Shown: positions 1 to 16,633 of the stretch, piece after piece | How the letters are laid out: every line of letters begins with the position of its first letter | How positions within the stretch are numbered: the first letter of the stretch is position 1 | IMG/VR virus record: IMGVR_UViG_2740892219_000014 | Source of the DNA: a virus | Lineage: Duplodnaviria; Heunggongvirae; Uroviricota; Caudoviricetes | Length of the DNA: 16,633 nt | Strand: one strand, 5' to 3' | Position numbers and translations under genes: made by a program | The notes under the pieces: generated by a model | What the model was told of the DNA's origin: nothing | The model's database searches: none | The model's input: the letters and a program-made list of their open reading frames with translations, nothing else

Positions 1-348
1 CTACTGCATACGGCGCTGTTGCTGCTTTTCTGTATGCACGCGTTTTACTATCTTATAAATCCATTGCAGCGTCAGATTATATTTCTTCGCTAATTCGGCG
101 TAGTTGCGCCCATCGCACTCGCTGTAGATTTGATAGTCCCGCTCCGAGGCTCGCCTGGCGATTCCTTTTGGAAAATAAATGCTTTGTCCGCCCCAGTTTC
201 GCATCATGCGATCGGCAATGGCATAGCCAACATTTTCCGCAGATGAGCTATCCAGATTGATGCTCTCAATCAGAACTTGCGAAGCATGAAACGCCAAATC
301 GTTAATGATCTCCGGTGTCCGGGTCATCTCTTTTGCTTTTTGTATCAT
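1..348 (-). CDS. Mor/C-family transcriptional activator (Mu middle/late operon regulator family)
   Basis: 115-aa ORF with stop at 1-3 and ATG at 346-348; GGAG RBS upstream on minus strand. C-terminal GGQSIYFPKG...DGRNYAELAKKYNLTLQWIYKIVKR matches the Mor/C pattern (GGQ-IY-P-G followed by a C-terminal HTH ending YKI/YKA-RR). Divergent from the lysis/tail operon. Confidence 0.8.
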   Translation of the reverse strand: MIQKAKEMTRTPEIINDLAFHASQVLIESINLDSSSAENVGYAIADRMMRNWGGQSIYFPKGIARRASERDYQIYSECDGRNYAELAKKYNLTLQWIYKIVKRVHTEKQQQRRMQ

Positions 349-2164: not shown

Positions 2165-2271
2165 TAACCATTCAATTTTTTCTCTAAATCACATTAAAAG
2201 ATTCTTCACTCTCACTGCTTCAGAATACATTTCAACGATAACGAAGTGAGCGGTAATAAGGTACACCTCAT

Positions 2272-2727
2272 ATGAAAGTTTTATCTGTAATGAATTATGT
2301 CGTGGTCAGATTACGTGATCGGCATCCTGAAATGGACATATTCATTTCATCTACGGATGCCCAAAAATATATTCCACAGACACAACAGATTACGGTGATT
2401 ATTAATTATAGCGGTTCTGTCTTCACCACGCCCGAAAGTAGTGATGCCATTGTACAACAGCAAATACTCCGCTTAACCGCCACCGTTATTGTTGGCAAAA
2501 ATTGTGATGCGTTAAACGCACTTGATCACATACGCAGCGCATTGGGAGGCCTTCAGCCTCCTGATTGCGATCATCTTATTTGGCTTGAAAAAGAAATTAA
2601 TACGGGTGAGAGCGACGGTTTCTGCCGCTACATCCTGGAAATGGCGACCAGCTCGCTGTTTATCGCTGAACAGGACAGCACGGATCTTCCCCTGCTTACT
2701 GAAGTTAATTACGAGGAAACTGAATGA
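2272..2727 (+). CDS. Phage virion protein, Mu gp37-like (putative tail completion or terminator protein)
   Basis: 151-aa ORF at the position Mu gene K (gp37) occupies immediately upstream of the sheath gene; its stop overlaps the next ATG (ATGA). Start codon uncertain (ATG 2272 or 2290). Family assignment from synteny and size, not a strong motif. Confidence 0.45.
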   Translation: MKVLSVMNYVVVRLRDRHPEMDIFISSTDAQKYIPQTQQITVIINYSGSVFTTPESSDAIVQQQILRLTATVIVGKNCDALNALDHIRSALGGLQPPDCDHLIWLEKEINTGESDGFCRYILEMATSSLFIAEQDSTDLPLLTEVNYEETE

Positions 2728-2921
2728 AATATATCTACAACGGTCCGGCAAGCGGCGTCACCCTTGCCGACGGTCAAGAAATCTTATTATGGCCGAACAG
2801 TGAAATTGATCTGCCAGAAGACAATGAGTGGGTTATGACCATGATTGCCCGAAATCACTTGATTCTCATCATCCCCCAGGAAGAACAAAATAACGTAGAG
2901 GAAATTGTACATGGCAGCTAA
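2724..2921 (+). CDS. Small phage protein, Mu gp38-like, translationally coupled between gp37-like and sheath
   Basis: 65 aa with GAGGA RBS (2714-2718); start overlaps the upstream stop and its end overlaps the sheath start by 11 nt; acidic; syntenic with Mu gp38. Confidence 0.4.
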   Translation: MKYIYNGPASGVTLADGQEILLWPNSEIDLPEDNEWVMTMIARNHLILIIPQEEQNNVEEIVHGS

Positions 2922-4332
2922 TTATCTGCACGGTGTAGAAACCATTGAAATTGAAACCGGCCCGCGTCCGGTAAAAGCAGTAAAATCAGCTGTAATCGCT
3001 TTAATCGGTACCGCTCCCTGTGGCCCGGTAAACCAACCGACGCTGTGCCTTTCTGAAAGTGACGCGGCACAGTTTGGATCGATTCAGGCTAACTTTACGA
3101 TCCCGCAGGCGCTGAAGGCGATTTATGATCACGGTGCCGGTACAGTGGTGGTAATTAATGTGCTGGATCCAGTAAAACATGGACTACACATTACCAATGA
3201 AACCATTACGTTCAATAGTGACGATAAAGCTAAATTAGCTCATCCGGGGGTAAGTTCGGTAACGCTAAGAGCAAGTATCAGTTCCACTACATACAAAAAT
3301 ACATCATACAGCGTTAATGCCGCTGACGGCGTTATTACCCGTACAGGAACTGAAATTGCGGCAGGAGCAAAGGTTTACGCGACTTATACCTATGTTGACC
3401 CTACAAAGGTCACCGCAGCCGATATTATCGGGGCCGTTAATACCGCAGGCGATCGCACGGGGATGAGGCTCCTTCAGGACACTTATAACTTGTATGGTTT
3501 CTACGCCAAAATTCTGCTGGCACCCGTTTTTTGTACGCAAAAATCAGTGACTACCGAGCTGATTGCACAAGCGGAAAAACTCGGTGCGATTACCTACATT
3601 GATGCCCCAATTGGGACTACATTCCAGCAGGTATTGGCTGGACGCGGTTCGCAAGGCGCAATCAACTTCAATACCAGCTCTGATCGTGCACGTTTATGCT
3701 ACCCACACGTCAAAGTTTACGATGGCATCACTAACCAGGAAATTCTTGAACCTCTCTCTTCGCGCGCTGCCGGGCTACGTGCCAAAGTAGACCTCGAAAA
3801 AGGTTTCTGGTGGAGCAACTCAAACCAGGAAATTCAGGGTATTACCGGTATCGAACGTTCGCTTTCCGCAATGATTGATGATCCACAAAGCGAAGTGAAT
3901 CAGCTCAACGAAAACGGTATTACCACTATTTTCAATAGTTATGGTTCTGGTCTGCGCCTGTGGGGCAACCGCACAGCGGCATGGCCAACCGTGACTCATA
4001 TGCGTAACTTTGAAAACGTTCGCCGGACAGGCGATGTAATTAATGAGTCAATCCGTTATTTCAGTCAACAGTATATTGATATGCCGATCAATCAGGCACT
4101 GATTGACGCGCTGACCGAATCGGTAAATACCTGGGGCCGAAAACTGATTGCCGACGGCGCACTGCTTGGCTTTGAGTGCTGGTACGATCCGGCGCGAAAT
4201 TCACCGGCTGAACTCAGTGCCGGGCATTTATTGCTCAGCTATAAATTTACCCCACCGCCGCCGCTGGAACGTCTGACGTTTGAAACTGAAATTACCTCTG
4301 AATATTTAGTCTCTCTGGAGAGCAATCGCTAA
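2911..4332 (+). CDS. Contractile tail sheath protein (Mu gpL / P2 FI family)
   Basis: 473 aa from ATG 2911 (GAGGA RBS 2898-2902; the track's TTG at 2905 is less likely). N-terminus MAANYLHGVETIEIETGPRPV is typical of sheath proteins; size and position directly upstream of the tube gene fit. Confidence 0.9.
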   Translation: MAANYLHGVETIEIETGPRPVKAVKSAVIALIGTAPCGPVNQPTLCLSESDAAQFGSIQANFTIPQALKAIYDHGAGTVVVINVLDPVKHGLHITNETITFNSDDKAKLAHPGVSSVTLRASISSTTYKNTSYSVNAADGVITRTGTEIAAGAKVYATYTYVDPTKVTAADIIGAVNTAGDRTGMRLLQDTYNLYGFYAKILLAPVFCTQKSVTTELIAQAEKLGAITYIDAPIGTTFQQVLAGRGSQGAINFNTSSDRARLCYPHVKVYDGITNQEILEPLSSRAAGLRAKVDLEKGFWWSNSNQEIQGITGIERSLSAMIDDPQSEVNQLNENGITTIFNSYGSGLRLWGNRTAAWPTVTHMRNFENVRRTGDVINESIRYFSQQYIDMPINQALIDALTESVNTWGRKLIADGALLGFECWYDPARNSPAELSAGHLLLSYKFTPPPPLERLTFETEITSEYLVSLESNR

Positions 4333-4856
4333 TGGCTGGAAAAATTCAAATTAACCGTATTACCAACGCCAATATTTATCTCGATGGTAATAATCTTTTA
4401 GGCCGTGCAACAGAAATTAAATTGCCAGATGTCAGTTTAATTATGCAGGAACATAAAGCACTGGGCATGGTGGGTAAAATAGAACTCCCGGCTGGTTTCG
4501 ATAAACTGGAGGGGGAAATTAAATGGAACTCCTTTTACCAGGACGTAATGCGTAAAACGGCAAACCCGTGGCAGGCTGTAGCATTACAGTGTCGCTCCAG
4601 TATTGATTGTTATAACTCTCAGGGGAAAGCGAATCAATTAGCGTTAGTCACACATTTAACCGTGATGTTTAAAAAAAATCCACTGGGCACATTTAAACAG
4701 AATGAAAACCCGGAATTCAGCAGCGCCTTTGGCTGCACTTATATTAAACAAGTAGTCGATGGTGAAACGCTGCTTGAACTGGATTATATGGCGAATATTT
4801 TCCGCGTTAACGGCGTGGATCAATTAAGTACCTATCGCAATAACATCGGTGGCTAA
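4332..4856 (+). CDS. Tail tube protein (Mu gpM / P2 FII family)
   Basis: 174 aa; start overlaps the sheath stop (TAATG). N-terminus ...NANIYLDGNNLLGRATEIKLP and C-terminus ...NIFRVNGVDQLSTYRNNIGG closely resemble the P2 FII tube pattern (NLFxDGxN ... VNGVDxLxxxRxNIG). Confidence 0.9.
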   Translation: MAGKIQINRITNANIYLDGNNLLGRATEIKLPDVSLIMQEHKALGMVGKIELPAGFDKLEGEIKWNSFYQDVMRKTANPWQAVALQCRSSIDCYNSQGKANQLALVTHLTVMFKKNPLGTFKQNENPEFSSAFGCTYIKQVVDGETLLELDYMANIFRVNGVDQLSTYRNNIGG

Positions 4857-4862
4857 GTTATT

Positions 4863-4878
4863 CGGGGCTACGGCCCCG
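4863..4878 (+). other. GC-rich hairpin (CGGGGC-TACG-GCCCCG) right after the tube gene
   Basis: Perfect 6-bp GC stem with tetraloop 7 nt after the tube stop; no T-run follows, so more likely an RNA stability or attenuation element than a full terminator. Confidence 0.35.
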
Positions 4879-4906
4879 AACTCCGCAAAATAAATAAGGA
4901 TACAAA

Positions 4907-5224
4907 ATGAAAGAGCATTATATCTTACAGTTTCCCTTTACGTCGGCAGCAGGAAATAATATCGACACGCTACAATTACGTCGCCTGAAAGTCAAAGATA
5001 TGCGTAATGCACGCCGGGTCAGCGAAAAGCCGGAAGAATGGGATGAACCGCTAATGGCAGCGATGACCGGGCTGGTACCAGAAGATTTAGCTGAAATGGA
5101 TTTGCTGGATTACCAGGCGTTGCAGAAACGATTTCAATCCATGCTTACCGTGGCTACAGAATCCCCCCTTGCTATGGCAGGCAATGGCGCTACTGGCGAG
5201 ATGGTTTCGCTTTCCACCCAGTGA
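4907..5224 (+). CDS. Tail assembly chaperone (P2 gpE / Mu gp41 position), short in-frame product
   Basis: 105 aa, acidic, with AAGGA RBS; located between the tube and tape-measure genes, as for tape-measure chaperones. Confidence 0.7.
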   Translation: MKEHYILQFPFTSAAGNNIDTLQLRRLKVKDMRNARRVSEKPEEWDEPLMAAMTGLVPEDLAEMDLLDYQALQKRFQSMLTVATESPLAMAGNGATGEMVSLSTQ

Positions 5225-5312
5225 GATTGACGCTCTAACGATAGATGACTTTAGTCACTGGCTGGATGAAGCCAGCGCTCAAATAAAAATCGAATATGAC
5301 TCGCAGACCTGA
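5163..5312 (+). other. Putative programmed frameshift site (C6 run) and +1-frame extension giving a longer chaperone isoform
   Basis: The +1 frame (equivalent to -2) is open from 5055 to a TGA at 5310-5312, overlapping the chaperone 3' end; UCC_CCC_CUU at 5162-5170 would let tRNA-Pro re-pair 2 nt back; the extension reads ...PPSEIDALTIDDFSHWLDEASAQIKIEYDSQT. The -1 frame closes almost immediately. Confidence 0.45.
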
Positions 5313-5412
5313 TGTCTGCGAGTTCTTCAAAGCCCGCCAGGTTTATTTCTTCCCAGCCCATTTTTCAGAAAACTAACCAGCGGGCCATCACCAATCTATA
5401 AGAGAAACAATT

Positions 5413-7788
5413 TTGGCCAACGATATTATTACCCAGCTTCAGGCGCGTAATGAGACGTTGACGCAGGCAATAGCCCGTTACGGCTCACTCAACGCCAGAA
5501 CATTGTTAGCACTCTCTTCTCAGCAAGCGACAGTAATCAAACTAACGCAGCAACTTGCCGATTCCGCTCTCCGCCTGGAGGAAAATAGCCGAAACCGCGC
5601 TGATCTGATGGAGAAAACCCAAACATTTGCTGGGCAATTTAGCAAAGTATTCAATGTTGAAGTCCCTGACTGGAAGTTGCCGTATGAGTTTCAGGACAAC
5701 ATGGTCAATTTGGCGACCAAAGGTGGGATGAATGATACAACCCGCGAGACACTCAGCCTTAATCTGCGCGACTGGAGCATGGATTTTAACCAGCAGCAGA
5801 CCACCTTACAGAACGCAGCCCAGGTGCTAATCGAAGGTAATTTGTCGTCGATGCAGGATCTCAACCGTTATATGCCGGAGCTCGCCAAAGCGGCCACCAC
5901 CACGCGCGAAAGTGCTGAAACATGGGCGAATGCCGCGCTCGCGACTCATGATCGACTGAATATTGCGCCAGAAAATTTCCACGCCGCGCAAAACATGATG
6001 TACGGCATTAGCAAAAACGGTGGGCCTACCGTTGCCGGGCAAACACAGTGGATAGACAAATTTGCAGTTAAAACTGGCGCACAGGGTTTAGAAGGTATGG
6101 CTGAACTGACCGCCACAATGCAGATCGCAATGAAAAATGGTGCCAGCGCCAGTGTGGCGGCGGAGAATTTCGACCACTTTCTGCAAACCATCTTTTCGAA
6201 AAAAACCGATAACTGGTTCGTCAGCCAGGGCGTCGATCTGCAAGGCTCTTTGCTTGAACATCAGCAAAACGGCATGGGTGTTAGCGAAGCCATGATTCAT
6301 ATCGTGCAAACGCAACTTGAGAAGATGAATCCGGCGATCCTCGACACCTTCAAACGCACCATGCAAATTGAAGATTTATCTGCTCGCAGCAACGCACTGC
6401 AATCGATGGTGACGCAATTTAATCTGGGCGAAATGTTCGGCGATGCGCAAACAGTGGAATTCCTGGCACCTGTGCTGGCGAATATGGAAGAGTATCGCCA
6501 GTTAAAAGCATCCGCCATGCAAGACAGCGGTAAGAATATGATTGACAACGATTTTTCTGTGCAGATGGCCTCGCCCATTGAACAAACTAAAACGTTACAA
6601 CTGGCGTTAAATGATTTATGGCTCAGCATTGGCTTGCAATTAATGCCGCTGATTGGCGAGTTGGCGCAAAGCCTTACTCCGGTGATTCGCCAGTTCAGCG
6701 CCTGGCTACGTGAACACCCGGCGCTGGTGCAAAACATTGCGAAAATCGTCGGAGCGATTTGGCTGTTTAACGGCGCACTGAATGTTTTAAAGCTGGGCGC
6801 GAACGTCATCGCCTCGCCGTTTATTCGTCTGGTCGATATCTTCCTGAAAGTCAGGGCAAGTCTGACGCTCACAGGCGCGGCAAGTAAGATGCTATCAGCG
6901 GTTAATTCATTATATAACGGCGCAAAATGGCTAACGCAACTGCTTGGCCGTGGCCTGATTGGCGCATTGAAACTGGCAGGTCAGACCGTCTTCTGGTTGG
7001 GTAGAGTTTTATTGATGAATCCTATTGGTCTGGTCATCACCGCGATTGCGGGCGCTGCTTATCTGATCTATCGCCACTGGGAACCTATCTCCAGATTCTT
7101 TTCCGCCATCTGGCAACGTATCACCACGGCCTTTGACGGCGGCATTGCAGGGATTTGCCGGTTAATTCTCGACTGGTCGCCGCTGGAGTTGTTCTACAAC
7201 GCCTTTTCCAGTGTGATGAATTGGTTTGGTGTCGAGATGCCTGCAAGTTTTAGCGAGTTCGGCAGCAATCTTCTGGGCAGTCTGGTTGACGGCATAATGA
7301 ATGCTTTCCCCGCTCTGAAAGGCATTATTGATCAGGTCAAAAACGCCTTACCGGACTGGCTAAAAACCACGATGGGTATTAGCACAGAAGGATCGGCTAC
7401 GGCTGTTACAAGCACGACGAATACCGCATCAATCTCCCCCACGACCGTTGTTCCAGGCGTTGCCGGAGCGATTTTAACGCCTCCTGTGGGCAAACAACTC
7501 GCGCCATCCAGTAAAACGACAACGTCGCCATCGACACCAGCGGAAAAAAATACAGCCGCCAAACCCGCATCGGCTTCTTTACCTGGTAAATCTGTAACCA
7601 AACCGGCGACGCTCCCCTCCCGTTCCTCTGGAAAAGTTCAGGTGAATTTTTCGCCACAAATTACCGTGCAGAGTAACGGACAAAACACCACTAAAGACAT
7701 TCAGAACGTGTTGACGATAAGTAAACGCGAACTGGAAAGAATGATTAACGACGTAATGGCGCAACAACAGCGCCGGGGGTATGCCTGA
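5413..7788 (+). CDS. Tail tape measure protein
   Basis: 791 aa; helical Q/A/L-rich N-terminal half, hydrophobic glycine-rich segments in the middle, and a Ser/Thr/Pro-rich low-complexity C-terminal region; sits after the chaperone gene. Apparent TTG start at 5413 (no in-frame ATG or GTG after the upstream stop at 5374-5376). Confidence 0.85.
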   Translation: MANDIITQLQARNETLTQAIARYGSLNARTLLALSSQQATVIKLTQQLADSALRLEENSRNRADLMEKTQTFAGQFSKVFNVEVPDWKLPYEFQDNMVNLATKGGMNDTTRETLSLNLRDWSMDFNQQQTTLQNAAQVLIEGNLSSMQDLNRYMPELAKAATTTRESAETWANAALATHDRLNIAPENFHAAQNMMYGISKNGGPTVAGQTQWIDKFAVKTGAQGLEGMAELTATMQIAMKNGASASVAAENFDHFLQTIFSKKTDNWFVSQGVDLQGSLLEHQQNGMGVSEAMIHIVQTQLEKMNPAILDTFKRTMQIEDLSARSNALQSMVTQFNLGEMFGDAQTVEFLAPVLANMEEYRQLKASAMQDSGKNMIDNDFSVQMASPIEQTKTLQLALNDLWLSIGLQLMPLIGELAQSLTPVIRQFSAWLREHPALVQNIAKIVGAIWLFNGALNVLKLGANVIASPFIRLVDIFLKVRASLTLTGAASKMLSAVNSLYNGAKWLTQLLGRGLIGALKLAGQTVFWLGRVLLMNPIGLVITAIAGAAYLIYRHWEPISRFFSAIWQRITTAFDGGIAGICRLILDWSPLELFYNAFSSVMNWFGVEMPASFSEFGSNLLGSLVDGIMNAFPALKGIIDQVKNALPDWLKTTMGISTEGSATAVTSTTNTASISPTTVVPGVAGAILTPPVGKQLAPSSKTTTSPSTPAEKNTAAKPASASLPGKSVTKPATLPSRSSGKVQVNFSPQITVQSNGQNTTKDIQNVLTISKRELERMINDVMAQQQRRGYA

Positions 7789-8741
7789 TGTATGCCGTTT
7801 TAGGAGAGATTGAATTTAAGGTTGTCACATTCTGGGACGGCTTTAAAAGCACAATGGGCGTGGACTACGCCACACATGCCCGTATAGAAGGCAAACCCGG
7901 CGTGCAGTTTATTGGCGATAAGCTGGATATGCTGGCACTGGAATTTTCCTTGCACAGCCAGTTTTGCCAACCCACAACAGAGCTGAATCGACTGCGTGAA
8001 GCCATGCTTGCCCACAAAGCGATGGCTCTGGTGTTTGGCAATGGCGATTATCGCGGCTGGTTTGTGATTACGGAGCTAACCGCCACCCACCAGCACACCG
8101 ATCCCTGGGGCAATGTGATTGCTCAAAGCGGAACAATGTCGCTCCAGGAGTACACCGGCGATCCTAAAAATCCACTCTTGCCCCCGGCAATTACTACCCA
8201 AGACCCGAATATTGACGAAAAGGCGAGCGATTTTCCAGACATGGTGGAGTCCTGGTTTGATCAGATATTGAACGCCATTGAAGAAGGTATGCGTAAGGCC
8301 AAAGAGATGCTCGATGAGCTGACTCAAGCCATTGAAGATATTAAAAAAACGGTGGCAAAAGTGAAAGCACTGGTTAAAGAGGCCAAAGCGTTAAAAGAAA
8401 AGTGTGAAAAGATAATTACGTCGTTGAAAAAGACTATCGACGCCATCGAAACCCTGTTTAAACAGCCCATGGATCTGCAAACGCTGGCAGGACTCCCAAA
8501 AGCGTTGTCGGCGCAGATTAACGCTTTACTGGGTAACATGCCAGGTATCCGGGACTGCGCCAAAGACGCCAGCACGCTGGTTGACCATGCTCAGGCGCTT
8601 TTCGACGACATTACCAACGACATCGCCGAAGCGACGTTCGATAAAGCCGCAACGTTGGTTGAGCAGGCACGAACAACGGTACAACAAACCACTCCCGCAG
8701 TGAGCCAGCTTGCTGCCGCGACCATTACGAGGAGCTGGTGA
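7788..8741 (+). CDS. Tail protein with gpU-like N-terminal domain (about 130 aa) fused to a long predicted coiled-coil C-terminal region
   Basis: 317 aa; start overlaps the tape-measure stop (TGATG). The N-terminal segment fits the slot and general pattern of P2 gpU / Mu gp43 N-domain; residues about 150-317 are K/E/A/L-rich heptad-like sequence (EEGMRKAKEMLDELTQAIEDIKKTVAKVKALVKEAKALKEK...). Confidence 0.5.
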   Translation: MYAVLGEIEFKVVTFWDGFKSTMGVDYATHARIEGKPGVQFIGDKLDMLALEFSLHSQFCQPTTELNRLREAMLAHKAMALVFGNGDYRGWFVITELTATHQHTDPWGNVIAQSGTMSLQEYTGDPKNPLLPPAITTQDPNIDEKASDFPDMVESWFDQILNAIEEGMRKAKEMLDELTQAIEDIKKTVAKVKALVKEAKALKEKCEKIITSLKKTIDAIETLFKQPMDLQTLAGLPKALSAQINALLGNMPGIRDCAKDASTLVDHAQALFDDITNDIAEATFDKAATLVEQARTTVQQTTPAVSQLAAATITRSW

Positions 8742-8950
8742 TGCGATACCTTGAACATATCACCACCGACGGCGAACGCTGGGATAATCTGGCATGGCAT
8801 TACTACGGCGATGCGCTGGCTTATGAACGCATCATCGCCGCCAATCCACATGTCGCCATTTACCCGGTACTGCCTTCCGGTATTCAGCTCATTATTCCGG
8901 TCATTTCCGTCAACAAAACCTTATCGGAGATACCACCATGGCTGAGATAA
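8741..8950 (+). CDS. Tail protein X-like (LysM-like fold, P2 gpX family)
   Basis: 69 aa from ATG 8741 (GAGGA RBS 8730-8734; overlaps the upstream stop). The sequence GERWDNLAWHYYGDALAYERIIAANPHVAIYPVLPSGIQLIIP fits the gpX pattern (GDxxDxLxxxYYG...ANPxL...LPxGxxLxIP). Confidence 0.7.
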   Translation: MRYLEHITTDGERWDNLAWHYYGDALAYERIIAANPHVAIYPVLPSGIQLIIPVISVNKTLSEIPPWLR

Positions 8951-9978
8951 GCGTATCTGGTGGCGTCTTTGCCACACTCGCGCCCATTTTTACCCTTTGG
9001 TATGGGCATAAAGATATCACTTATGACATCACGCCCTATGTCACCAGCATCAGTTACCACGACAGCATCAAAAACGAGTCAGATACCATCGCCATTACAC
9101 TGGATGACACCGATGGACGTTGGATAAAAGAGTGGTATCCCGGCAAAGGCGATACGCTGGCGCTGCATATGGGTTATCAGGGGGAGACGCTCCTCGATTG
9201 CGGTCAGTATATTATTGATAAAATTGATATTTCATCACCACCTTCCACGGTAAATATTGATGGCATTGCCACTTCCGTCAATCAGGCGCTGCGTACCCGT
9301 AACAGTCAGGGCTTTGAAGAAACGACGCTTTCGGCCATCGCCAGTCGTATCGCGCAAACTCACGGTCTGAAGCTGGTGGGCAAAATCGAGCCGCTGGCGA
9401 TTGACCGGGTGACACAGTACGGCGAAACCGATGTTGGATTTCTCAAGCGTCTGGCCAGCGAATATGGCTATACCGTGAAAGTGACGACAAAAGAGCTGAT
9501 TTTTTCACATCTGCCGACACTACGCTGCCTGGCGCCAGTGAAAACCATCGACCGCAAAGAGGTTTCGCACTTTACCTTCAAAGACACCATTAATCGCATC
9601 TACAAGAACGCCACCGTACAGCATCAAAATAGTAAGAAAAAAGAACTGGTTATCTACACTCACGACAGCCAGCAAAAACCGTCAGCCCGTGGAGTCGGCA
9701 CCAGTGCCGACACGTTGAAACTCAACAGCCGGGCGACGGATGTTGGCGCGGCACAGGCAAAGGCCAACGCTGCACTCGACAGCCACAACGAATATCAGCA
9801 AACCGGAACACTCAGGATGATGGGCTGCCCGGAACTGACAGCAGGCAATAAAATCGAACTCATTGATTTTGGTATTCTTTCTGGACAATGGCTGATTGAT
9901 AAATCTACTCACAGTTTTGTGCGCAGCGGCTATACCACTGAAATCGACGTTTCGCGCGGGCCAGCAACCAGCCAGTAA
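8938..9978 (+). CDS. Baseplate hub / late control gene D-like protein (P2 gpD, Mu gp44 family)
   Basis: 346 aa with GGAG RBS; start overlaps the gpX-like 3' end; size and position (after U/X, before the spike) fit the gpD family. Confidence 0.8.
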   Translation: MAEISVSGGVFATLAPIFTLWYGHKDITYDITPYVTSISYHDSIKNESDTIAITLDDTDGRWIKEWYPGKGDTLALHMGYQGETLLDCGQYIIDKIDISSPPSTVNIDGIATSVNQALRTRNSQGFEETTLSAIASRIAQTHGLKLVGKIEPLAIDRVTQYGETDVGFLKRLASEYGYTVKVTTKELIFSHLPTLRCLAPVKTIDRKEVSHFTFKDTINRIYKNATVQHQNSKKKELVIYTHDSQQKPSARGVGTSADTLKLNSRATDVGAAQAKANAALDSHNEYQQTGTLRMMGCPELTAGNKIELIDFGILSGQWLIDKSTHSFVRSGYTTEIDVSRGPATSQ

Positions 9979-9987
9979 GGAGGCACT

Positions 9988-10647
9988 ATGAAGGGAGTAA
10001 CCCGGCAAACGGGGATTATCAGCGATATTGACGAAACCAGCGTTCGGGTGCGAGTCACACTGCCAGAGTGCGACAATCTGAAGAGTAACTGGCTTGCGGT
10101 ACTTCAACGTAATTCCCAGGACAATAAAGACTACTGGCTACCGGATATGGGTGAGCAGGTGGAAGTTCTGCTGGACGACAACGGCGAAGATGGCGTGGTA
10201 CTTGGGGCCGTTTATTCTACGGTTGACACCGCGCCTGTGGCCTCGCGAGATAAACGTTACGTCCAGTTTTCTGATGGCGCAGCGTTTGAATATGACCGCA
10301 GCACACACCAGCTTACGATTAACGGCGGTATTGAGAAAATCGTGATTGAGGTTATTGACCGTACTAACCTGACATCACCCAACGTTGAGGTTAAAGCCCA
10401 ACAGGTCACCGTGACTTCCGATACCGTCGATATTAAAGCGACGGCAGTGACGGTAGATGCGCCCATGAGCACCTTTACTGGTAACGTCACGGTAATGAAA
10501 AAACTCACCTGGCTGGGTGGCATGGCAGGAAGTGGAGGCATCGGTAACGCCGCCACGATAACTGGCAATGTCAATGTGATTGGTAACGTTCAGGCCAGCG
10601 GCACATTGCAGGATAGCGGTGGTAACTCAAATCACCATTCACACTAG
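9988..10647 (+). CDS. Baseplate central spike (P2 gpV / Mu gp45 family)
   Basis: 219 aa with a perfect AAGGAGG RBS; N-terminal OB-fold-like region, a middle region of repeated short beta-strand motifs (VTVTSDTVDIKATAVTVDA...), a glycine-rich section and a C-terminal NHHSH tip, as in gpV-type spikes with a metal-binding apex. Confidence 0.85.
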   Translation: MKGVTRQTGIISDIDETSVRVRVTLPECDNLKSNWLAVLQRNSQDNKDYWLPDMGEQVEVLLDDNGEDGVVLGAVYSTVDTAPVASRDKRYVQFSDGAAFEYDRSTHQLTINGGIEKIVIEVIDRTNLTSPNVEVKAQQVTVTSDTVDIKATAVTVDAPMSTFTGNVTVMKKLTWLGGMAGSGGIGNAATITGNVNVIGNVQASGTLQDSGGNSNHHSH

Positions 10648-10653
10648 CTTTTA

Positions 10654-10682
10654 ACCCGCCTGATGGCGGGTTTTCTCTTTTT
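10654..10682 (+). terminator. Rho-independent terminator-like hairpin after the spike gene
   Basis: ACCCGCC-TGAT-GGCGGGT stem-loop followed by TTTTCTCTTTTT, starting 7 nt after the gpV-like stop; leaves a roughly 60-nt spacer before the gpW-like gene. Confidence 0.55.
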
Positions 10683-10745
10683 AATCAATCAGTTTTCTAA
10701 ATCGCTTTAATATCCCCACTGTCCGTTCAGGGCGAAAATAAGCAC

Positions 10746-11105
10746 ATGAACACAAAAACACGCCCCTCAACGCTGCACTGGCAACCCGCCTTGCAGCGGC
10801 CTGAAGAATACGTCTGCGGACTGGATGATATTCACCAGGCAATACACATCATTCTGCGCACGCCGCGCGGCAGTGATCCCCACAGACCGCTGTTTGGCAG
10901 CAACTTGTGGCACTACATCGATTACCCCATCGAGCGGGCAATCCCGCATGTGGTACGGGAGTCGGTGGAAGCCATCCGCCAGTGGGAACCGCGATGTCGG
11001 TTGCTGAAGGTAGCACCGATAATCGACGGTGAACATCTGACGTTACGTGTGCAATGGCGCGCCGCTGACGGCGTAATCAACTCAACGGAGGTGTTATGGC
11101 GATAG
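10746..11105 (+). CDS. Baseplate protein W (GPW/gp25 family)
   Basis: 119 aa; IHIILRTPRGSDPHRPLFGSNLWHYID ... WEPR matches the GPW/gp25 signature (ILxTxxGE/S...P.FGS.L...D...WEPR). Confidence 0.75.
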   Translation: MNTKTRPSTLHWQPALQRPEEYVCGLDDIHQAIHIILRTPRGSDPHRPLFGSNLWHYIDYPIERAIPHVVRESVEAIRQWEPRCRLLKVAPIIDGEHLTLRVQWRAADGVINSTEVLWR

Positions 11106-12211
11106 CCGAACCCGATTTTATTGACCGCGATCCTGCGCAAATTACCAGCGAGATGATTGCGCAATACGAAGATGCCAGCGGTAAAAAACTCTATCCGGCA
11201 CAGGCCGAACGGTTACTCATCGACCTGTTTGCCTATCGTGAAAACCTTGTGCGCATCGCCATTCAGGAAGCGGCGAAACAAAACCTGGTCGCGTATTCCC
11301 GCGCACCAATGTTGGATTATTTAGGGGAGCTGGTGGGTGTTCACCGTTTACCTGCGCAACCGGCAAAAACGACGTTGCAGTTTTCGGTCGTCAGTGCGTA
11401 TACCAGCAATATCCTGATTCCCCAGGGGACGCGGGCCAGTGCCTCTGACAGCGTGATGTTCGCCACCGATGAAGATGTTCTGCTTCCGGCCAGGAGTTTG
11501 CATATCGCCGTTCCGGCCACCAGCCTCGCAGTAGGTGAACAGGGCAATGGCTGGCAGCCTGCACAGATTAGCGCCCTTGTTGACAGGATCGGTTATTACG
11601 ATATCAACGTGACTAATCTGACTCCCACAACCGGCGGTTGTGGTGAAGAGAACGATGATGCACTACGCCAGCGTATACAACTGGCGCCAGAAAGCTTCAG
11701 TAATGCCGGCAGCTATGGCGCATATCGCTTTCATACACTTTCGGTTAGCCAGTCAATTATTGACGTTACAGTACTGGGGCCAGATGAAGGGTTGCCAGAA
11801 GGCTGCGTCGAGCTCTACCCGCTAACCCTGAATGGTCTGCCAGGAACCGAGCTACTCGCGCAAATTGAACAAGAAGTGAGTAAAGAGAAAAAACGTCCGC
11901 TGACTGACAAAGTAAGTGCGAAATGTGCTCTTAGGGTGCCGTATGAAATTCGTGCGCAGCTAACGCTGTTTACCACCGCCGATCAGGAGACAACACTGGC
12001 TGCGGCGCGTAAAGCGATTAGCCTCTGGACGCAACAGCGGCAGAAACATCTGGGGCAGGACATTGTGCCAAACCAGATAATCAAAGTGTTACAAGTCGAT
12101 GGCGTCTATGACGTTGTGCTGAACATGCCTACAAAACGTATTTTGCAGGCGCATGAATGGGCGGAATGCACTGTAATAGACGTCACGATTGCCGGAGTCA
12201 GCGATGGATAA
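11096..12211 (+). CDS. Baseplate wedge protein J (P2 gpJ / Mu gp47 family)
   Basis: 371 aa; start overlaps the gpW-like stop; DDALRQRIQLAPESFSNAGSYGAYRFHTLS resembles the conserved gpJ core; sits in the gpW-gpJ-gpI order. Confidence 0.85.
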   Translation: MAIAEPDFIDRDPAQITSEMIAQYEDASGKKLYPAQAERLLIDLFAYRENLVRIAIQEAAKQNLVAYSRAPMLDYLGELVGVHRLPAQPAKTTLQFSVVSAYTSNILIPQGTRASASDSVMFATDEDVLLPARSLHIAVPATSLAVGEQGNGWQPAQISALVDRIGYYDINVTNLTPTTGGCGEENDDALRQRIQLAPESFSNAGSYGAYRFHTLSVSQSIIDVTVLGPDEGLPEGCVELYPLTLNGLPGTELLAQIEQEVSKEKKRPLTDKVSAKCALRVPYEIRAQLTLFTTADQETTLAAARKAISLWTQQRQKHLGQDIVPNQIIKVLQVDGVYDVVLNMPTKRILQAHEWAECTVIDVTIAGVSDG

Positions 12212-12920
12212 ATTGCTGCCACCGCCGCCGCTTGCCAGCGATGAGCGTTTTTCAACTCTGGCAAATATCGCCGCCGAACGTTTTGCGCAACTCGATCTGA
12301 CGGCATTAATGATATACCTGGTCGACCTGGTTGATGCTTCGGCATTACCTGCCCTTGCAGAACAATTTCACGTTCAGGGGCTGGAAGGTTGGTTATTTAC
12401 TACTGATGAACAAGAGAAGCGTGAGTTAATTAAGCAAGCCATTGAGTTACATAAATATAAAGGAACAGTTTGGGCGGTACGGCGAGTACTGGAAATACTC
12501 TCATTGCCTGGAACTATTGCCGAATGGTTTGAATATGGCGGGAAAGCTTATTTTTTTAAGGTTGATATTACACTAGAGGAAAAAGGGTTAAATGAAGATG
12601 AATTTAATGCACTTATCACATTAATTCATGAATATAAAAATGTTCGTTCAAAACTGGAAAGTATTGTTATTTGGCTTATTAATCAAAGCTCAATACCAGT
12701 TATTGGCAGTGCCATGCAAGGAGGGGAAATCATTACAGTATTGCCTCCTGTTGCAGAAAGTATCAGCCAATCATCAAGAATATTTTTAGCGACAGGTTAT
12801 TGTGTAGAGGAATATATCCAACTACTACCTTATCAACCTGATCGCCTTACACAATCCCAACCGATGAAAATCGGTACAGGATACTGGAGCACCGAAATTA
12901 TGTCTGTATACCCGGAGTAA
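12204..12920 (+). CDS. Baseplate/tail protein I-like (P2 gpI / Mu gp48 position) with an AT-rich C-terminal extension
   Basis: 239 aa from ATG 12204 (GGAG RBS; ATGGATAA overlap with the gpJ-like stop; the track's TTG at 12189 is less likely). N-terminus [16 protein letters not shown] fits the gpI type; the 3' half (about 12480-12920) is markedly AT-rich compared with neighbours. Confidence 0.65.
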
Positions 12921-12922
12921 TA

Positions 12923-14671
12923 ATGGCAAGTGAATTTTTTACAATATTAACTGCTGCAGGCAAAACCCAAATTGCCTCAGCACTGGCGGAGCAAAAACAG
13001 ATCCGTCTGCAAACTATGGTAGTTGGCGATGGCAACGGTAAATATATCGAACCGACAGAAATCCAGACCAAAGTAGTCCATGAGGTCTGGCGTGGTCAGC
13101 TCAATACATTAAAAATTGCGCCAGATAATCCGGCCTGGGTTATCGCAGAAGCGATTATTCCCGAAGAGGTTGGAGGCTGGTATGTTCGCGAAGTTGGGTT
13201 GCTGGATACCGACGGCACGCTGGTCGCTATTGGTAAATTCCCTGAAACCTATAAACCACAATTACCTGCAGGTGCCAGTAAGCAAATTGTTATACGCGCA
13301 GTGATGGAAGTGACAAATGCGGATGTGGTGACGCTGTTGATAGATCCTTCAGTTGTTATGGCAACCAGGGAATATGTCGATGACACGCTGAAAGCACATC
13401 AGCAATCACGAAATCATCCTGATGCAACACTGACGCAGAAAGGTTTCACGCAACTGAGTAATGCAACTAATAGCGATGATGAAACCAAAGCGGCCACACC
13501 AAAAGCAGTAAAAACCGCATATGACCTGGCAAATAGCAAAGCCGCCACCAGCCATACTCATGGCTGGAATCAGATAACCAGTATCCCTGACGGTACGCTG
13601 GCGCAGAAAGGGATTGTGAAGCTTAACAGTACCACAAACAGCACCAGCACAACGGAAGCTGCAACACCGAGCGCGGTGAAGGCGGCAATGGATAAGGCTA
13701 CTGCGGCTGCACCAGCAAGCCATACCCACACCTGGGGACAAATCACTGGTATCCCCGACGCCACGCTGACGCAAAAAGGAATTGTGAAGCTTAACAGTAC
13801 CACAAACAGCACCAGCACGACGGAAGCTGCAACACCGAGCGCGGTGAAGGCGGCAATGGATAAGGCTATTGCGGCAGCACCAGCAAGTCATACCCACGCC
13901 TGGGGACAAATCACTGGTATCCCCGACGCCACGCTGACGCAAAAAGGAATTGTGAAACTTAACAGTACCACAAACAGCACCAGCACGACGGAAGCTGCAA
14001 CACCGAACGCGGTGAAGGCAGCAATGGATAAGGCTATTGCGGCGGAAAACTGTCCCGTAGGTATGCCTATTCCCTGGCCGTCTGATTCTGTACCTTCAGG
14101 CTATGCGCTGATGACAGGACAAACATTCAATAAAACCTCCTATCCCAAACTGGCGATTGCATATCCATCTGGTGTCATTCCTGATATGCGTGGATGGATA
14201 ATTAAAGGGAAACCGGCCAGTGGGCGCACAGTATTATCAACTGAACTGGATGGAGTTAAATCACATAACCATACGGGCAGTATTTCTAGTACGGATTTAG
14301 GGACAAAAACCACAGCCCTCACAGACTTGGGGACTAAAACTACATCAGCATTTAACCATGGTAATAAAACAACAAGTTCATCTGGCACAGTCTCGGCAAC
14401 TGCAACTGTAAGAACAGGGACATCTTCGCCAGAGGGCCAAGCCGACTGGACATCATATGGCCCTGGAACCGGATCATCTTTGACTATTAATGTTCCATCA
14501 CACGCCCATAGTATTACAATTGGTTCCCATTCCCACACTGTTGCACTCGGCACCCATTCGCATTCAATTGCCCTTGGTTCCCATAACCACTCCCTAACCA
14601 TTAATAATACAGGCCCCCCCGAAAACACCGTTAAAAATATCGCATTCAACTATATTGTGAGGCTAGCATGA
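12923..14671 (+). CDS. Tail fiber protein (P2 gpH / Mu S type) with collagen-like repeats and a His-x-His tip
   Basis: 582 aa. Conserved N-terminal baseplate-attachment region (HEVWRGQLN...[38 protein letters not shown]...[48 protein letters not shown]); three 56-aa tandem repeats ([36 protein letters not shown]...); a C-terminal array of H-x-H motifs; and a terminal ...[15 protein letters not shown]. Confidence 0.9.
13553..14045 (+). repeat. In-frame 168-nt tandem repeat, about 2.9 copies, inside the tail fiber gene
   Basis: Copies begin at 13553, 13721 and 13889 (period exactly 168 nt); copies 2 and 3 are nearly identical at the nucleotide level and copy 1 is more diverged; a degenerate partial copy lies upstream at about 13425-13552. 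Confidence 0.85.
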
Positions 14672-15375
14672 ATACTTTTACCTTTTCCGATGAAGCTCAA
14701 ATACTGACTGTTTATAATTTTTCACAAGACTCCCGAGAATATATTGGTGAGTCTGATGCATACATTGCGCCTAATACAGGCTTACCAAATTTTTGCACAT
14801 TAATTTCACCTCCCAAAAAGGTTCCTGGTTTTACTCCTGTTTGGGAGAGTGAAACATGGGGACTTATTGAAGATCATCGAGGCCAAACAGTTTATAACAA
14901 AGTTGATGGCAGCCAGACTATTATTAATAAATTGGGTCAATTGCCTGAAACTGTCACAATTATTTCCCCTACCAGTACTTTTGAGCGTTGGGATGGCGAA
15001 AAATGGCAGCCATCACTTGATGATGCTAAACAGGCGATATATGCCGAAATCAAAAACCTGCGCGATTCTGCCATCGCCGATTACATCATCATCAACGCTC
15101 ATCACTTCCACAGTGATACAAATAGCCGAATACAACAACTCTCACTCACAAAAATGGGAGCCGAAAAACAAATTCCGCCAGGTTTAATGTGGAAAACTAA
15201 AAATAACGGTCTGATTGAGTTAACCAACGAAATCGCCGCCCAGTTTGAATCGGTAACAATAGATCACGATATGCGCCTGTTTGCCAACGCCCAGCGCCAT
15301 ATTGCGGCGGTGGAAACTCTGGGCGATATTCAGGCAGTGCTCGACTACGACTACTCCACAGGCTGGCAACCATGA
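14668..15375 (+). CDS. Tail fiber assembly protein (Tfa, chaperone for the fiber tip)
   Basis: 235 aa; start overlaps the fiber stop (ATGA). N-terminal region ...[34 protein letters not shown]...[20 protein letters not shown]...[13 protein letters not shown]...WDGEKW resembles lambda/P2-type Tfa N-domains; the C-terminal half is divergent. Confidence 0.8.
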
Positions 15376-15827
15376 GTAAAACCACTGTCTGGCTCGCTTG
15401 CTATAAAGGCCGAACAGAGCACCGGGGTATTGCGCAACTAGCTGACTGGCTTACCCGTAAAATCACACGCGGCAGTTATTCCCACTGCGAGTTAGCAGTG
15501 GTATATGGTGAAAAAAATTACCTTTGTTACTCTGCATCACTGCGCGATCGCGGTGTACGCGGAAAGATAATGCCACTACCGTCAGATAAGTGGGATATGC
15601 TGCCGCTCCAGGCTAGCGTTCAGGATGTGGAAGCTTTTTTCCATAAACATAATGGCAAAAAATACGACTGGCGCGGAGCCTTAGGAATTATCACAGGCAA
15701 TAAAGAACAGCGCGATCGTCTGTTCTGCAGTGAATTTTGCGCCGAGTTTCTACAGTTAAAAGAGAGTTGGCGCTATTCCCCAAACCATTTGTATGCTTTA
15801 GTCAGCAGTTGGCAATATCAGCCGTAA
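15372..15827 (+). CDS. Hypothetical 151-aa protein coupled to tfa; possible permuted papain-like (NlpC/P60 YaeF/LRAT-like) hydrolase or acyltransferase
   Basis: ATG overlaps the tfa stop (ATGA), so it is the last gene of the tail operon. An N-proximal His (SYSHCELAVVYG) and a C-proximal Cys in a CSEF context (RLFCSEFCAEF) tentatively fit a permuted His...Cys papain-like arrangement. It is real as an ORF; the function is weakly supported. Confidence 0.5.
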   Translation: MSKTTVWLACYKGRTEHRGIAQLADWLTRKITRGSYSHCELAVVYGEKNYLCYSASLRDRGVRGKIMPLPSDKWDMLPLQASVQDVEAFFHKHNGKKYDWRGALGIITGNKEQRDRLFCSEFCAEFLQLKESWRYSPNHLYALVSSWQYQP

Positions 15828-15832
15828 AATAA

Positions 15833-15853
15833 CGCCGGGCATCACGCCCGGCG
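15833..15853. terminator. Hairpin shared by the convergent gene ends; likely terminator for the minus-strand gene
   Basis: CGCCGGGC-ATCAC-GCCCGGCG stem-loop between the plus-strand stop (15825-15827) and the minus-strand stop (15842-15844, inside the loop); on the minus strand it is followed by TTATTTTAC, whereas on the plus strand no T-run follows. Confidence 0.55.
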
Positions 15854-16633
15854 CATTACCGTCTGGTACAGTAAACTATCCAGTTCCTTAACGTCCCCTT
15901 CCCTGCTGTCCGGTAACACTGGTGGAATTTTCCCGTGCACCAGTTCCGTACTAATAAACACATGCAACAAAGGACGACGCGGACCATATTCCACTTCACC
16001 CGCACGCTGTTTACATTCCAGCAACTCGTCTATTTCTGCGCGTAACGGCGCATCAAGTTCGCTTCCCGCCAGTAATTCGGCAAACCGCATTGGCAGTACA
16101 CCTTTACCCGCTTCAACCCAACGCACAGCCAGCAGTGGCCGCAGCACGTAAAAGTATTTTTTCAGCCAAACTACGTTGCCCTGCAAATAACCGCGAAAAT
16201 TTTTCCGCGCCATCGGATAATAATGCCAACGCGCGCGCAGCGGAGAAAACCACTTCGGCACCATTGCCTTAAGCGCCGTTATCGTTTCTTCATCTTGTTG
16301 ATAGACCACCGGAGAATCCAGCCATTCAATCAGCGTCGGATTCGCGCCTTTCAGTAATCCCAGCGCCTTGCGCCACTCCCAGCCTGAAACATCTAACTCG
16401 TCGTCAATAGGCAACTCAATAACATCGCGCGGCGCCTCCACCCGCAGATACCATTCCGGCGGATGAACATACAAGAACCGCACATCGTAGTCGCTGTCGG
16501 GTGAGGCAAATCCCCAACCGCGACTCCCCGATTCACTCGCATACAACACTTTCACATCATACCGCCGTTCAATTTCTTTTAACTGCTGCGATACCCGTTC
16601 GTGCATCGCAACACTGACTCCATTTAATGGCAT
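15842..16633 (-). CDS. Nucleotidyltransferase-fold protein (Pol beta superfamily)
   Basis: 263-aa ORF whose ATG is the last codon of the window (16631-16633), so the true N-terminus could lie beyond the edge. The motif LYASESGSRGWGFASPDSDYDVRFLY matches the minimal nucleotidyltransferase signature hG[GS]-x(9-13)-DhD; it is convergent with the tail operon. Confidence 0.6.
   Translation of the reverse strand: MPLNGVSVAMHERVSQQLKEIERRYDVKVLYASESGSRGWGFASPDSDYDVRFLYVHPPEWYLRVEAPRDVIELPIDDELDVSGWEWRKALGLLKGANPTLIEWLDSPVVYQQDEETITALKAMVPKWFSPLRARWHYYPMARKNFRGYLQGNVVWLKKYFYVLRPLLAVRWVEAGKGVLPMRFAELLAGSELDAPLRAEIDELLECKQRAGEVEYGPRRPLLHVFISTELVHGKIPPVLPDSREGDVKELDSLLYQTVMRRA

Follow-up and report, generated by a model that had tools for sequence, protein, structure and literature searches.

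An AT-rich island in the gpI-like gene of an enterobacterial contractile-tail cluster overlaps a predicted exchangeable fibre cassette

Results

The gpI-like gene and its neighbours

The DNA analysed here, 16,633 nucleotides (nt) of IMG/VR virus record IMGVR_UViG_2740892219_000014 (Caudoviricetes) and hereafter called the window, is a head-less, Mu-derived contractile-tail cluster that, by its gene content, resembles a tailocin. Its plus-strand genes form one contractile-tail operon, with a Mor-family activator on the minus strand upstream. Within this operon, a gene for a gpI-like baseplate protein lies directly after a gpJ-like gene (11096-12211) and before the fibre gene (12923-14671), the position expected of a triplex subunit. 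An earlier reading of the letters alone (the original prediction) had noticed that the 3' half of the gpI gene is AT-rich, and had proposed that the fibre-attachment and host-range end was swapped in from a lower-GC donor. We examined the composition of this region, its variation among related elements and the protein that it encodes. The features concerned are given below, with GC3 denoting GC content at third codon positions, aa amino acids, and L020 a second locus from the window's species.

11096..12211, plus strand: gpJ-like baseplate protein, backbone partner of the gpI N-terminus (Pfam Baseplate_J, E 1.1e-61)
12204..12920, plus strand: gpI-like gene, 238 aa, baseplate wedge 'triplex' single-copy subunit (by Pfam, PDB profile, Foldseek and gene position)
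12204..12568, plus strand: backbone part of gpI, codons 1-121; one mismatch against L020, with the 3' 240 nt already AT-rich
12330..12958, plus strand: AT-rich island, GC 0.38, GC3 0.23 (change-point segmentation and permutation test)
12522..12568, plus strand: conserved block at the left crossover, with strong DNA conservation in 9 elements from 5 genera
12569..15100, plus strand: predicted dimorphic specificity cassette, comprising gpI codons 122-238, the fibre gene and tfa codons 1 to about 140 (identity profiles)
12687..12917, plus strand: three tandem 28-residue units at the gpI C-terminus (residues 162-189, 190-217 and 218-238)
12923..14671, plus strand: tail fibre, 582 aa (Pfam PF12571, four copies of PF03406, PF07484)
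14018..15031, plus strand: second AT-rich block, from the fibre tip through the N-terminal half of tfa (change points at both ends)
14668..15375, plus strand: tail-fibre assembly protein tfa, 235 aa (Pfam DUF4376 and Caudo_TAP; phrog_1807, phrog_105)

Several searches agreed on the identity of gpI. Residues 9-148 belong to Pfam Tail_P2_I (PF09684; E 2.2e-33, 115.5 bits against a cut-off of 20.6), the protein matches phrog_48 'tail protein' (E 6.8e-81), and a PDB profile search matched pyocin R2 Tri2 (PA0619, 177 aa; E 2.8e-7). A first AlphaFold model, built on a 17-sequence alignment, had a predicted local distance difference test (pLDDT) score of 37 and was unusable. With a 50-sequence alignment, residues 41-160 were modelled at pLDDT of about 90, and the model displayed helices over residues 8-98, a strand at 103-107, a short helix at 108-111 and a second strand at 117-125. 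The top 8 Foldseek matches of this model in PDB were all baseplate structures of contractile systems (6u5b_0: probability 1.0, TM-score 0.64 normalised to the target), and the core was most similar to wedge subunits, among them those of pyocin, diffocin, P1 and phiCD508, each 148-190 aa long. In Pfam family, fold and position between gpJ-like and fibre genes, gpI resembles pyocin R2 Tri2, P2 gpI and the single-copy triplex subunit of diffocin. In the R2 pyocin, the triplex is a heterotrimer made of Tri1 and Tri2. A pseudogene or assembly artefact was rejected, as the identical gpI protein sits on 19 public contigs.

The region beyond the core sets gpI apart from these proteins. Tri2 has a tail of about 25 residues after its core, whereas the tail of gpI is 80-90 residues long, consists of three 28-residue units and has no counterpart in the matched solved chains. 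P2 gpI is 176 aa. The view that gpI is longer than typical is thus correct relative to Tri2 and P2 gpI, but not within the family, where the lengths of the 147 nearest cluster representatives centre on a median of 217 aa (interquartile range 202-242 aa). In-register similarity of the three units was clear (z 4.0-4.7, p <= 3e-4). A 210-aa form of gpI, present in related elements, holds two units, and its length gap to the 238-aa form is exactly 28 aa; relatives at 35-41% identity hold one to three units, with three in Chromobacterium. These counts were taken from explicit alignments, since a motif regular expression overlooked the middle unit of the query. At the DNA level, a search for a duplication that could underlie the third unit gave nothing. 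Matches that span to residue 238 occur in Chromobacterium (41% identity) and in a Ralstonia phage (46%). These homologues indicate that the tail, which the original prediction took for part of an import, is ancestral and varies in copy number, and that it is no recent addition.

From residue 161 onward, model confidence declines, with block means falling from 68 to 32 and pLDDT below 50 at residues 182-186 and 195-238. Such low confidence would be expected if this segment acquires its structure upon binding a partner. The diffocin equivalent, a single-copy triplex subunit, is linked to the fibre through its C-terminal region (PMC10996793). By analogy with diffocin, gpI may be present at one copy per wedge, with its C-terminus holding the fibre.

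An AT-rich island with an abrupt left edge

GC content is 0.374 in 12480-12920 versus 0.514 in 11096-12479, and in 300-nt windows it drops from 0.49-0.57 to 0.36. Windows of 441 nt this AT-rich make up 4.7% of all, the other equally AT-rich ones starting at 155-613 (covering the 3' end of Mor together with the spacer between Mor and holin) and at 1952-2094. Greedy GC3 segmentation of all plus-strand genes delimited the island at 12330-12958 (199 codons), with a GC3 of 0.231 compared to 0.544 for the segment upstream (5195-12329) and 0.408 for the segment downstream. A 199-codon window this low was generated in 0/2000 permutations, where the minimum permuted GC3 was 0.312. The left edge of the island is abrupt (best cut 12330, 2-unit support interval 12324-12393, log-likelihood ratio 21.5) and the right edge diffuse (support interval 12855-13595). 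Sliding-window GC and codon usage therefore bear out an abrupt AT-rich stretch in the 3' half of gpI and a composition that is far from uniform. The borders originally proposed, 12480-12920, do enclose AT-rich sequence; the start, however, has to be moved about 150 nt upstream, and the island also extends slightly into the fibre gene.

We next compared observed GC3 with that expected from the amino acids encoded and the codon usage of the other tail genes. For gpI codons 62-238, GC3 is 0.27 versus 0.50 expected (z = -6.4). The overall GC deficit of 0.12 splits into 0.04 from amino-acid composition and 0.08 from synonymous codon choice. GC content is lowest, at 0.275, in a trough at 12560-12679. 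Searches within the island revealed no enrichment of promoter-like sites (1 observed versus 2.8 expected), no enrichment of or match to terminators, and no match to known RNA families in Rfam.

A second AT-rich stretch had been noted at about 14150-15100 and assigned to the distal fibre, tfa and cargo. The assignment holds for fibre residues 381-582 (GC3 0.36, z -5.2) and tfa residues 1-130 (GC3 0.28, z -5.4), but not for the cargo: GC3 is normal in the tfa C-terminus (0.52) and in the downstream 151-aa open reading frame (ORF; 0.46). The right compositional edge of this block falls at 15031 (support 14953-15226). Between the two AT-rich blocks, the fibre shaft has a normal GC3 of 0.50.

Two alleles of a 2.5-kb segment

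Identity profiles were generated for the window versus L020, for the elements of E. coli IAI39 (L001) versus E. coli MS14386 (L013), and for the window versus a 6.7-kb contig (L003), and were complemented by protein segment identities. The window and L020 are 99-100% identical over 2204-12568 and about 99% identical again from about 15101, with the right crossover at 15077-15100. Inside these limits, from 12569 to 15076-15100, they are only about 20-80% identical. The two E. coli elements, about 97% identical elsewhere, differ in the homologous interval. Allele divergence starts at 12569 in the window's species and at about 12563 in E. coli, and the left junction adjoins the conserved block GAATGGTTTGAATATGG..AA.GC.TATTTTTTTAAGGT.

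Protein comparison of L003 and L001, which carry the two allele classes, delineates the same segment. Identity is 1.00 for J and 0.97 for gpI residues 1-119, 0.43 for gpI from residue 120 to its end, 0.65 for fibre residues 1-150, 0.23 for the fibre tip and 0.20 for tfa residues 1-125, then 0.97 for the tfa C-terminus and 0.96 for the 151-aa ORF. Between elements with different cassettes, gpJ is 97-100% identical. The tfa protein itself is divided, with an allele-specific N-terminal half and a C-terminal DUF4376 half that belongs to the backbone; compared with the other allele, residues 1-125 show an identity of 0.22, and the final 100 residues one of 0.91.

Both alleles are widespread. The backbone of W, J and the gpI N-terminus was matched in 197/5426 complete E. 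coli genomes, in 195 of them at 90-95% identity, and the cluster in these carriers is always chromosomal and present in one copy. The 238-aa gpI class was found in 149/197 carriers and the 210-aa class in 46/197. The window's species, E. coli and Superficieibacter each contain both alleles. Between species, identity within each allele (about 88-95%) is similar to that of the backbone (91-93%) and close to that of the window's chromosomal flank, which is 89.6% identical to E. coli. Given this flank identity, and the name Escherichia albertii that NCBI assigns to the gpI of a sister contig, the host is an Escherichia other than E. coli, probably E. albertii. Within-allele divergence on a par with backbone divergence implies that the dimorphism is old or was moved around as a unit. 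The type of gpI tail was linked to the type of fibre N-terminus in 37/37 surveyed IMG/VR loci: gpI of 238/239 aa accompanied a MASEFF/MSDEFF fibre start (10/10), and gpI of 210 aa accompanied MDNEFY (27/27). By these sequence comparisons, the 3' part of gpI, the fibre gene and the 5' part of tfa behave as one exchangeable block, whose alleles may differ in target specificity.

Low GC3 in both alleles and in tail-only relatives

From residue 120 to its end, gpI has a GC3 of 0.25-0.47 versus 0.53-0.74 for J of the same element, and this applies to both alleles. The mean values for this gpI segment and J are 0.36 versus 0.61 in the 238-type and 0.41 versus 0.62 in the 210-type. The dip is present in every tail-only relative examined, covering Escherichia, Superficieibacter, Dryocola, Phytobacter and 33 IMG/VR contigs. 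A dip common to both alleles and all tail-only relatives is no mark of a swap that distinguishes the alleles. Thus, exchange of the fibre-attachment and host-range end, as originally proposed, survives in the form of the block described above, but AT-richness as the sign of that exchange does not. Forms of gpI with 239 aa, one of which belongs to a Mu-like prophage (L012), have a mean GC3 of 0.60 versus 0.66 for J, and the Lelliottia element shows no GC3 dip in gpI. These dip-free forms indicate that the gpI protein itself does not demand AT-rich codons.

Fibre and tfa

The fibre begins with an N-terminal tail-collar fibre domain, followed by four fibre repeats, a collar domain and a tip rich in His-x-His. 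Three tandem repeats of 168 nt (56 aa) with 77-78% mutual identity occupy 13488-14043 in the shaft, and three 27-nt units at 14513-14590 encode the His-x-His motifs of the tip. Fibres of the same allele in E. coli are shorter (526-536 versus 582 aa), which suggests that fibre repeat number varies.

Over 78% of its length, the fibre tip shares 69% identity with T4 gp37; against tips of T4-like, P2-like and lambdoid phages, identity is 55-70%, with P2-like and lambdoid tips at about 60%. T4 is a low-GC phage. To judge from these matches, the tip is part of a pool that is exchanged widely, low-GC phages included, and this shared pool is a plausible low-GC source for the distal AT-rich block. The tfa N-terminus likewise matches many tfa proteins.

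Discussion

A baseplate-fibre adaptor and its composition

The account that we favour, with a probability of roughly 0.7 taken as a whole, has three parts. First, gpI would be the adaptor that joins baseplate to fibre in a chromosomal, head-less, Mu-derived tail cluster, which may produce tailocin particles. Its N-terminal 120 or so residues (the helices and the first strands of the alpha/beta domain) are predicted to form the wedge 'triplex' with gpJ, and would be inherited together with the baseplate backbone. Second, from codon 122 onward, gpI would belong to a 2.5-kb specificity cassette containing the rest of the alpha/beta domain, the 28-residue repeat tail, the fibre and the N-terminal half of tfa. 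Two old alleles of this cassette, roughly 35-80% divergent, are presumably exchanged by homologous recombination at two conserved blocks. The repeat tail most likely docks the trimeric fibre, and docking would explain why the tail travels with the fibre N-terminus. Third, AT-richness appears to be a signature carried by the synonymous sites of three segments, namely this part of gpI, the fibre tip and the tfa N-terminus. Its most likely origin is older ancestry in a pool of lower-GC phage genes, with a composition that has not yet drifted to that of the host. Overlap of the island with the specificity block is, in this account, ordinary phage-tail mosaicism and no scar of one recent swap.

Several observations weigh against this account. 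The Lelliottia element (L007) pairs a 211-aa gpI with the fibre N-terminal type usual for the 238-aa form. The crossover is at 12569, but the left compositional edge is about 240 nt further upstream, at 12330 (support 12324-12393), so about 240 nt of the island are backbone common to both alleles. In the comparison of breakpoints with related elements, only the right side agreed, where the compositional edge at 15031 coincides with the crossover at 15077-15100. In Salmonella-type elements the dip is limited to gpI, and the fibre N-terminus has a GC3 of about 0.73; this pattern typifies the largest 210-type group (L039-L054), and a cause local to the gene would explain it no less well than the import of a large block. 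The AT-richness of both alleles could equally mean local constraint or mutational bias. In addition, model confidence is low for the repeat tail, whose contact with the fibre is one that we infer. Finally, neither a low-GC donor nor a close low-GC relative of the gpI segment was found. Residues 121-238 alone, searched against a 5.8-billion-protein set, gave 13 matches and no other source, the named ones being Escherichia/Salmonella gpI proteins or fragments plus one fibre-domain entry. A tblastn search of gpI against 50,697 phage records retrieved no relative above 68% identity and none indicating a low-GC donor. The lower-GC donor invoked for gpI by the original prediction thus found no backing in either data set.

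Alternative explanations

A more far-reaching interpretation, possible but rather unlikely in our judgment, would combine an uncharacterised Mu-derived R-type tailocin with a two-allele specificity polymorphism that predates the split of E. coli and its sister species. The exchange unit would include a fibre-docking array in gpI, with one to three 28-residue units matched to the type of fibre N-terminus, and AT-richness would be functionally maintained, the junction being kept recombinogenic or silenced, for example, rather than AT-rich by historical accident.

Selection at the nucleotide level, taken by itself, is an unlikely reason for the AT-richness. Candidate roles are a tract for binding or silencing by nucleoid proteins (e.g. 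H-NS), a linker that favours cassette exchange, or slow codons that might set the dose of gpI or let it fold together with the fibre. Such selection is consistent with persistence of the dip in both alleles and several genera while flanking genes have host-like GC3, and with its restriction to gpI in Salmonella-type elements. Short blocks are invariant even synonymously, such as CATGAATATAAAAA and most of GAATGGTTTGAATATGG, and the crossover adjoins one such invariant block. Moreover, synonymous codon identity of the 210-type gpI segment from residue 120 to its end was 0.66-0.72 in 5/6 cross-genus pairs and 0.55 in one, whereas J was lower (0.49-0.60), although the gpI segment has the lower protein identity. 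On the other hand, homologues of the same architecture lack the dip, namely the 239-aa forms including L012 and the Lelliottia element. The lack of enrichment in promoter-like sites and of an Rfam match also speaks against a nucleotide-level role, and gpI codons 43-119 show the lowest synonymous conservation of the region across genera (0.40-0.52). Beyond persistence of the dip, we found nothing in support of a nucleotide-level function.

It is quite improbable that the island is the direct scar of one recent import, in which a fibre-attachment and host-range end from a lower-GC donor entered an otherwise uniform element. The size of the GC3 contrast, the abrupt left edge, the meeting of right compositional edge and right crossover, and a cassette swap that can be demonstrated are all as this scenario would have it. 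Yet the island begins in sequence identical between alleles, ahead of the crossover, and the same dip occurs in the alternative allele and in every tail-only relative examined, across several genera. The fibre shaft has normal GC3 although it lies within the cassette, and no donor was found. Furthermore, between the window's species and E. coli the island is 93-95% identical, as is the remainder of the element, and it hence predates that split. A recent single import is largely refuted by these data.

That low GC merely mirrors the abundance of K, N, I, F, Y and E in this protein segment, and says nothing about history or function, is very improbable: amino-acid composition does contribute to the deficit, and the deepest trough encodes a 34-residue stretch of this segment, but two thirds of the deficit are synonymous, homologues with 60-76% identical protein reach a GC3 of 0.67-0.71, and composition was rejected as a sufficient explanation by the gap between expected and observed GC3.

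Comparison with known systems

Among known phenomena, the nearest is the localized recombination seen at tailocin loci, which affects the fibre and chaperone genes. Recombination confined to receptor-binding protein and chaperone genes has been described for the R-type syringacins of Pseudomonas syringae (PMC6331570) and for carotovoricin of Pectobacterium (PMC13195805). Like those loci, the element studied here is a conserved chromosomal tail cluster in which only the fibre/chaperone region differs sharply between near-identical strains, and alternative alleles are common to several species. Unlike in those loci, its exchanged unit has one border within gpI, at codon 122, and the other within the chaperone gene; Escherichia yielded only two alleles, and the element is known here from its genes alone.

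Fibre tips and tfa genes are classically exchanged horizontally among P2, Mu, lambda and T-even phages, and the tip matches reported above place this element within that tradition. The classical mosaic literature concerns the distal fibre and its chaperone, whereas the exchanged block in this element also takes in the proximal junction with the baseplate.

A third comparison is with the Mu-like prophage of E. coli OkiPb01694 (L012), in which the genes from tape measure to fibre chaperone and a 150-aa ORF are arranged in the same order, and gpI has 239 aa and three repeats. In L012, com and mom follow the tail module and gpI has no GC3 dip (0.69 versus 0.68 for J). The window's element differs from it in having no head, transposition or immunity genes between its chromosomal flanks. 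A related tail module in a Mu-like prophage that ends in com and mom fits the presence of a Mor activator and Gp37 in the window. Syringacins, too, are Mu-derived.

These data provide base-precise borders (12569 and about 15100) for what appears to be a natural specificity cassette in an enterobacterial tail-like particle, and extend the exchanged unit beyond fibre and chaperone alone to the C-terminal half of the baseplate adaptor gpI. For retargeting of tailocins or phages, grafts at the conserved block of gpI and at the start of the tfa DUF4376 core would use nature's own junctions. The junction is useful for engineering and will not surprise a specialist. The findings also caution against taking a compositional island for a recombination scar simply because it lies beside a real recombination cassette.

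Gene content and chromosomal setting

The remaining genes of the window are as follows.

1-348, minus strand: Mor-family activator, upstream of the operon and next to an AT-rich spacer
From 904, plus strand: holin
Between holin and sheath, plus strand: SLT transglycosylase, lipoprotein and Gp37, in that order
From 2905, plus strand: sheath
From 4332, plus strand: tube, followed by the tail chaperone
From 5413, plus strand: tape measure
Between tape measure and W, plus strand: gpU-like, X, D and V genes
From 10746, plus strand: W
15372-15827, plus strand: 151-aa ORF, after tfa
Right end of the window, minus strand: RlaP-family nucleotidyltransferase

The window contains a full set of contractile-tail genes together with lysis genes, the gene content by which an R-type tailocin is recognised. 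The element's gene set includes no packaging, replication or integration genes, and no head, transposition or immunity genes lie between the chromosomal flanks of the cluster in the E. coli copy. In E. coli MS14386, the tail genes, the RlaP-family nucleotidyltransferase gene and an opposite-strand slipin gene occupy the entire lysC-yjbD interval. Three annotated E. coli copies have yjbD/rluF as their right flank, and the only intact left end, that of MS14386, is flanked by lysC. A literature search found no published description of this element as a tailocin, and no experimental report of particles or killing by it.

The 555-nt spacer between the Mor-like gene and holin (349-903) is the most AT-rich part of the window, with a GC content of about 0.30-0.33, and is presumably a regulatory region; at 58-76% identity to E. 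coli, it is far more diverged than the genes. A patch of the sheath gene (3167-3391) is about 58% identical to E. coli IAI39 between flanks of 90-95% identity. The patch also differs between L020 and E. coli MS14386, and looks on this evidence like a second, small mosaic segment. The gpV-like spike gene (9988-10647) encodes 219 aa in the window and sister strains and 233 aa (702 nt) in the E. coli copies, with the length change at the C-terminus.

Insertion sequences disrupt several E. coli copies of the element. ISEc53 occupies the expected site of the Mor gene in IAI39 (L001 203-1423), tfa is split by IS1A in MS14386 (L013 16457-17154), and an ISVsa5-family element is listed among the features under the match from J to fibre in TCM3e1 (hit H7).

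Cargo at the right junction varies between loci (window 15842-16633, L014 13639-15563, L016 13838-16286, L020 13382-15120). The window type comprises the RlaP-family nucleotidyltransferase and a slipin (Band_7) gene, and sister strains have a GT4 glycosyltransferase and ORFs of no known function. PADLOC returned no defence-system match for the 151-aa ORF, the nucleotidyltransferase or slipin. The 151-aa ORF is without a Pfam family and matches phrog_1128, labelled as an enoyl-CoA hydratase-like 'moron'. All tail-only elements carry it behind tfa, as does the Mu-like prophage L012, in which it stands directly before com and mom.

The 6.7-kb contig L003 (JAEZCC010000043.1) carries the label 'MAG: Bacillota bacterium'. 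Its identity to the Escherichia element is 93-97%, and it includes 1.2 kb at 100% identity to E. coli strains, and by these identities it was probably mis-binned.

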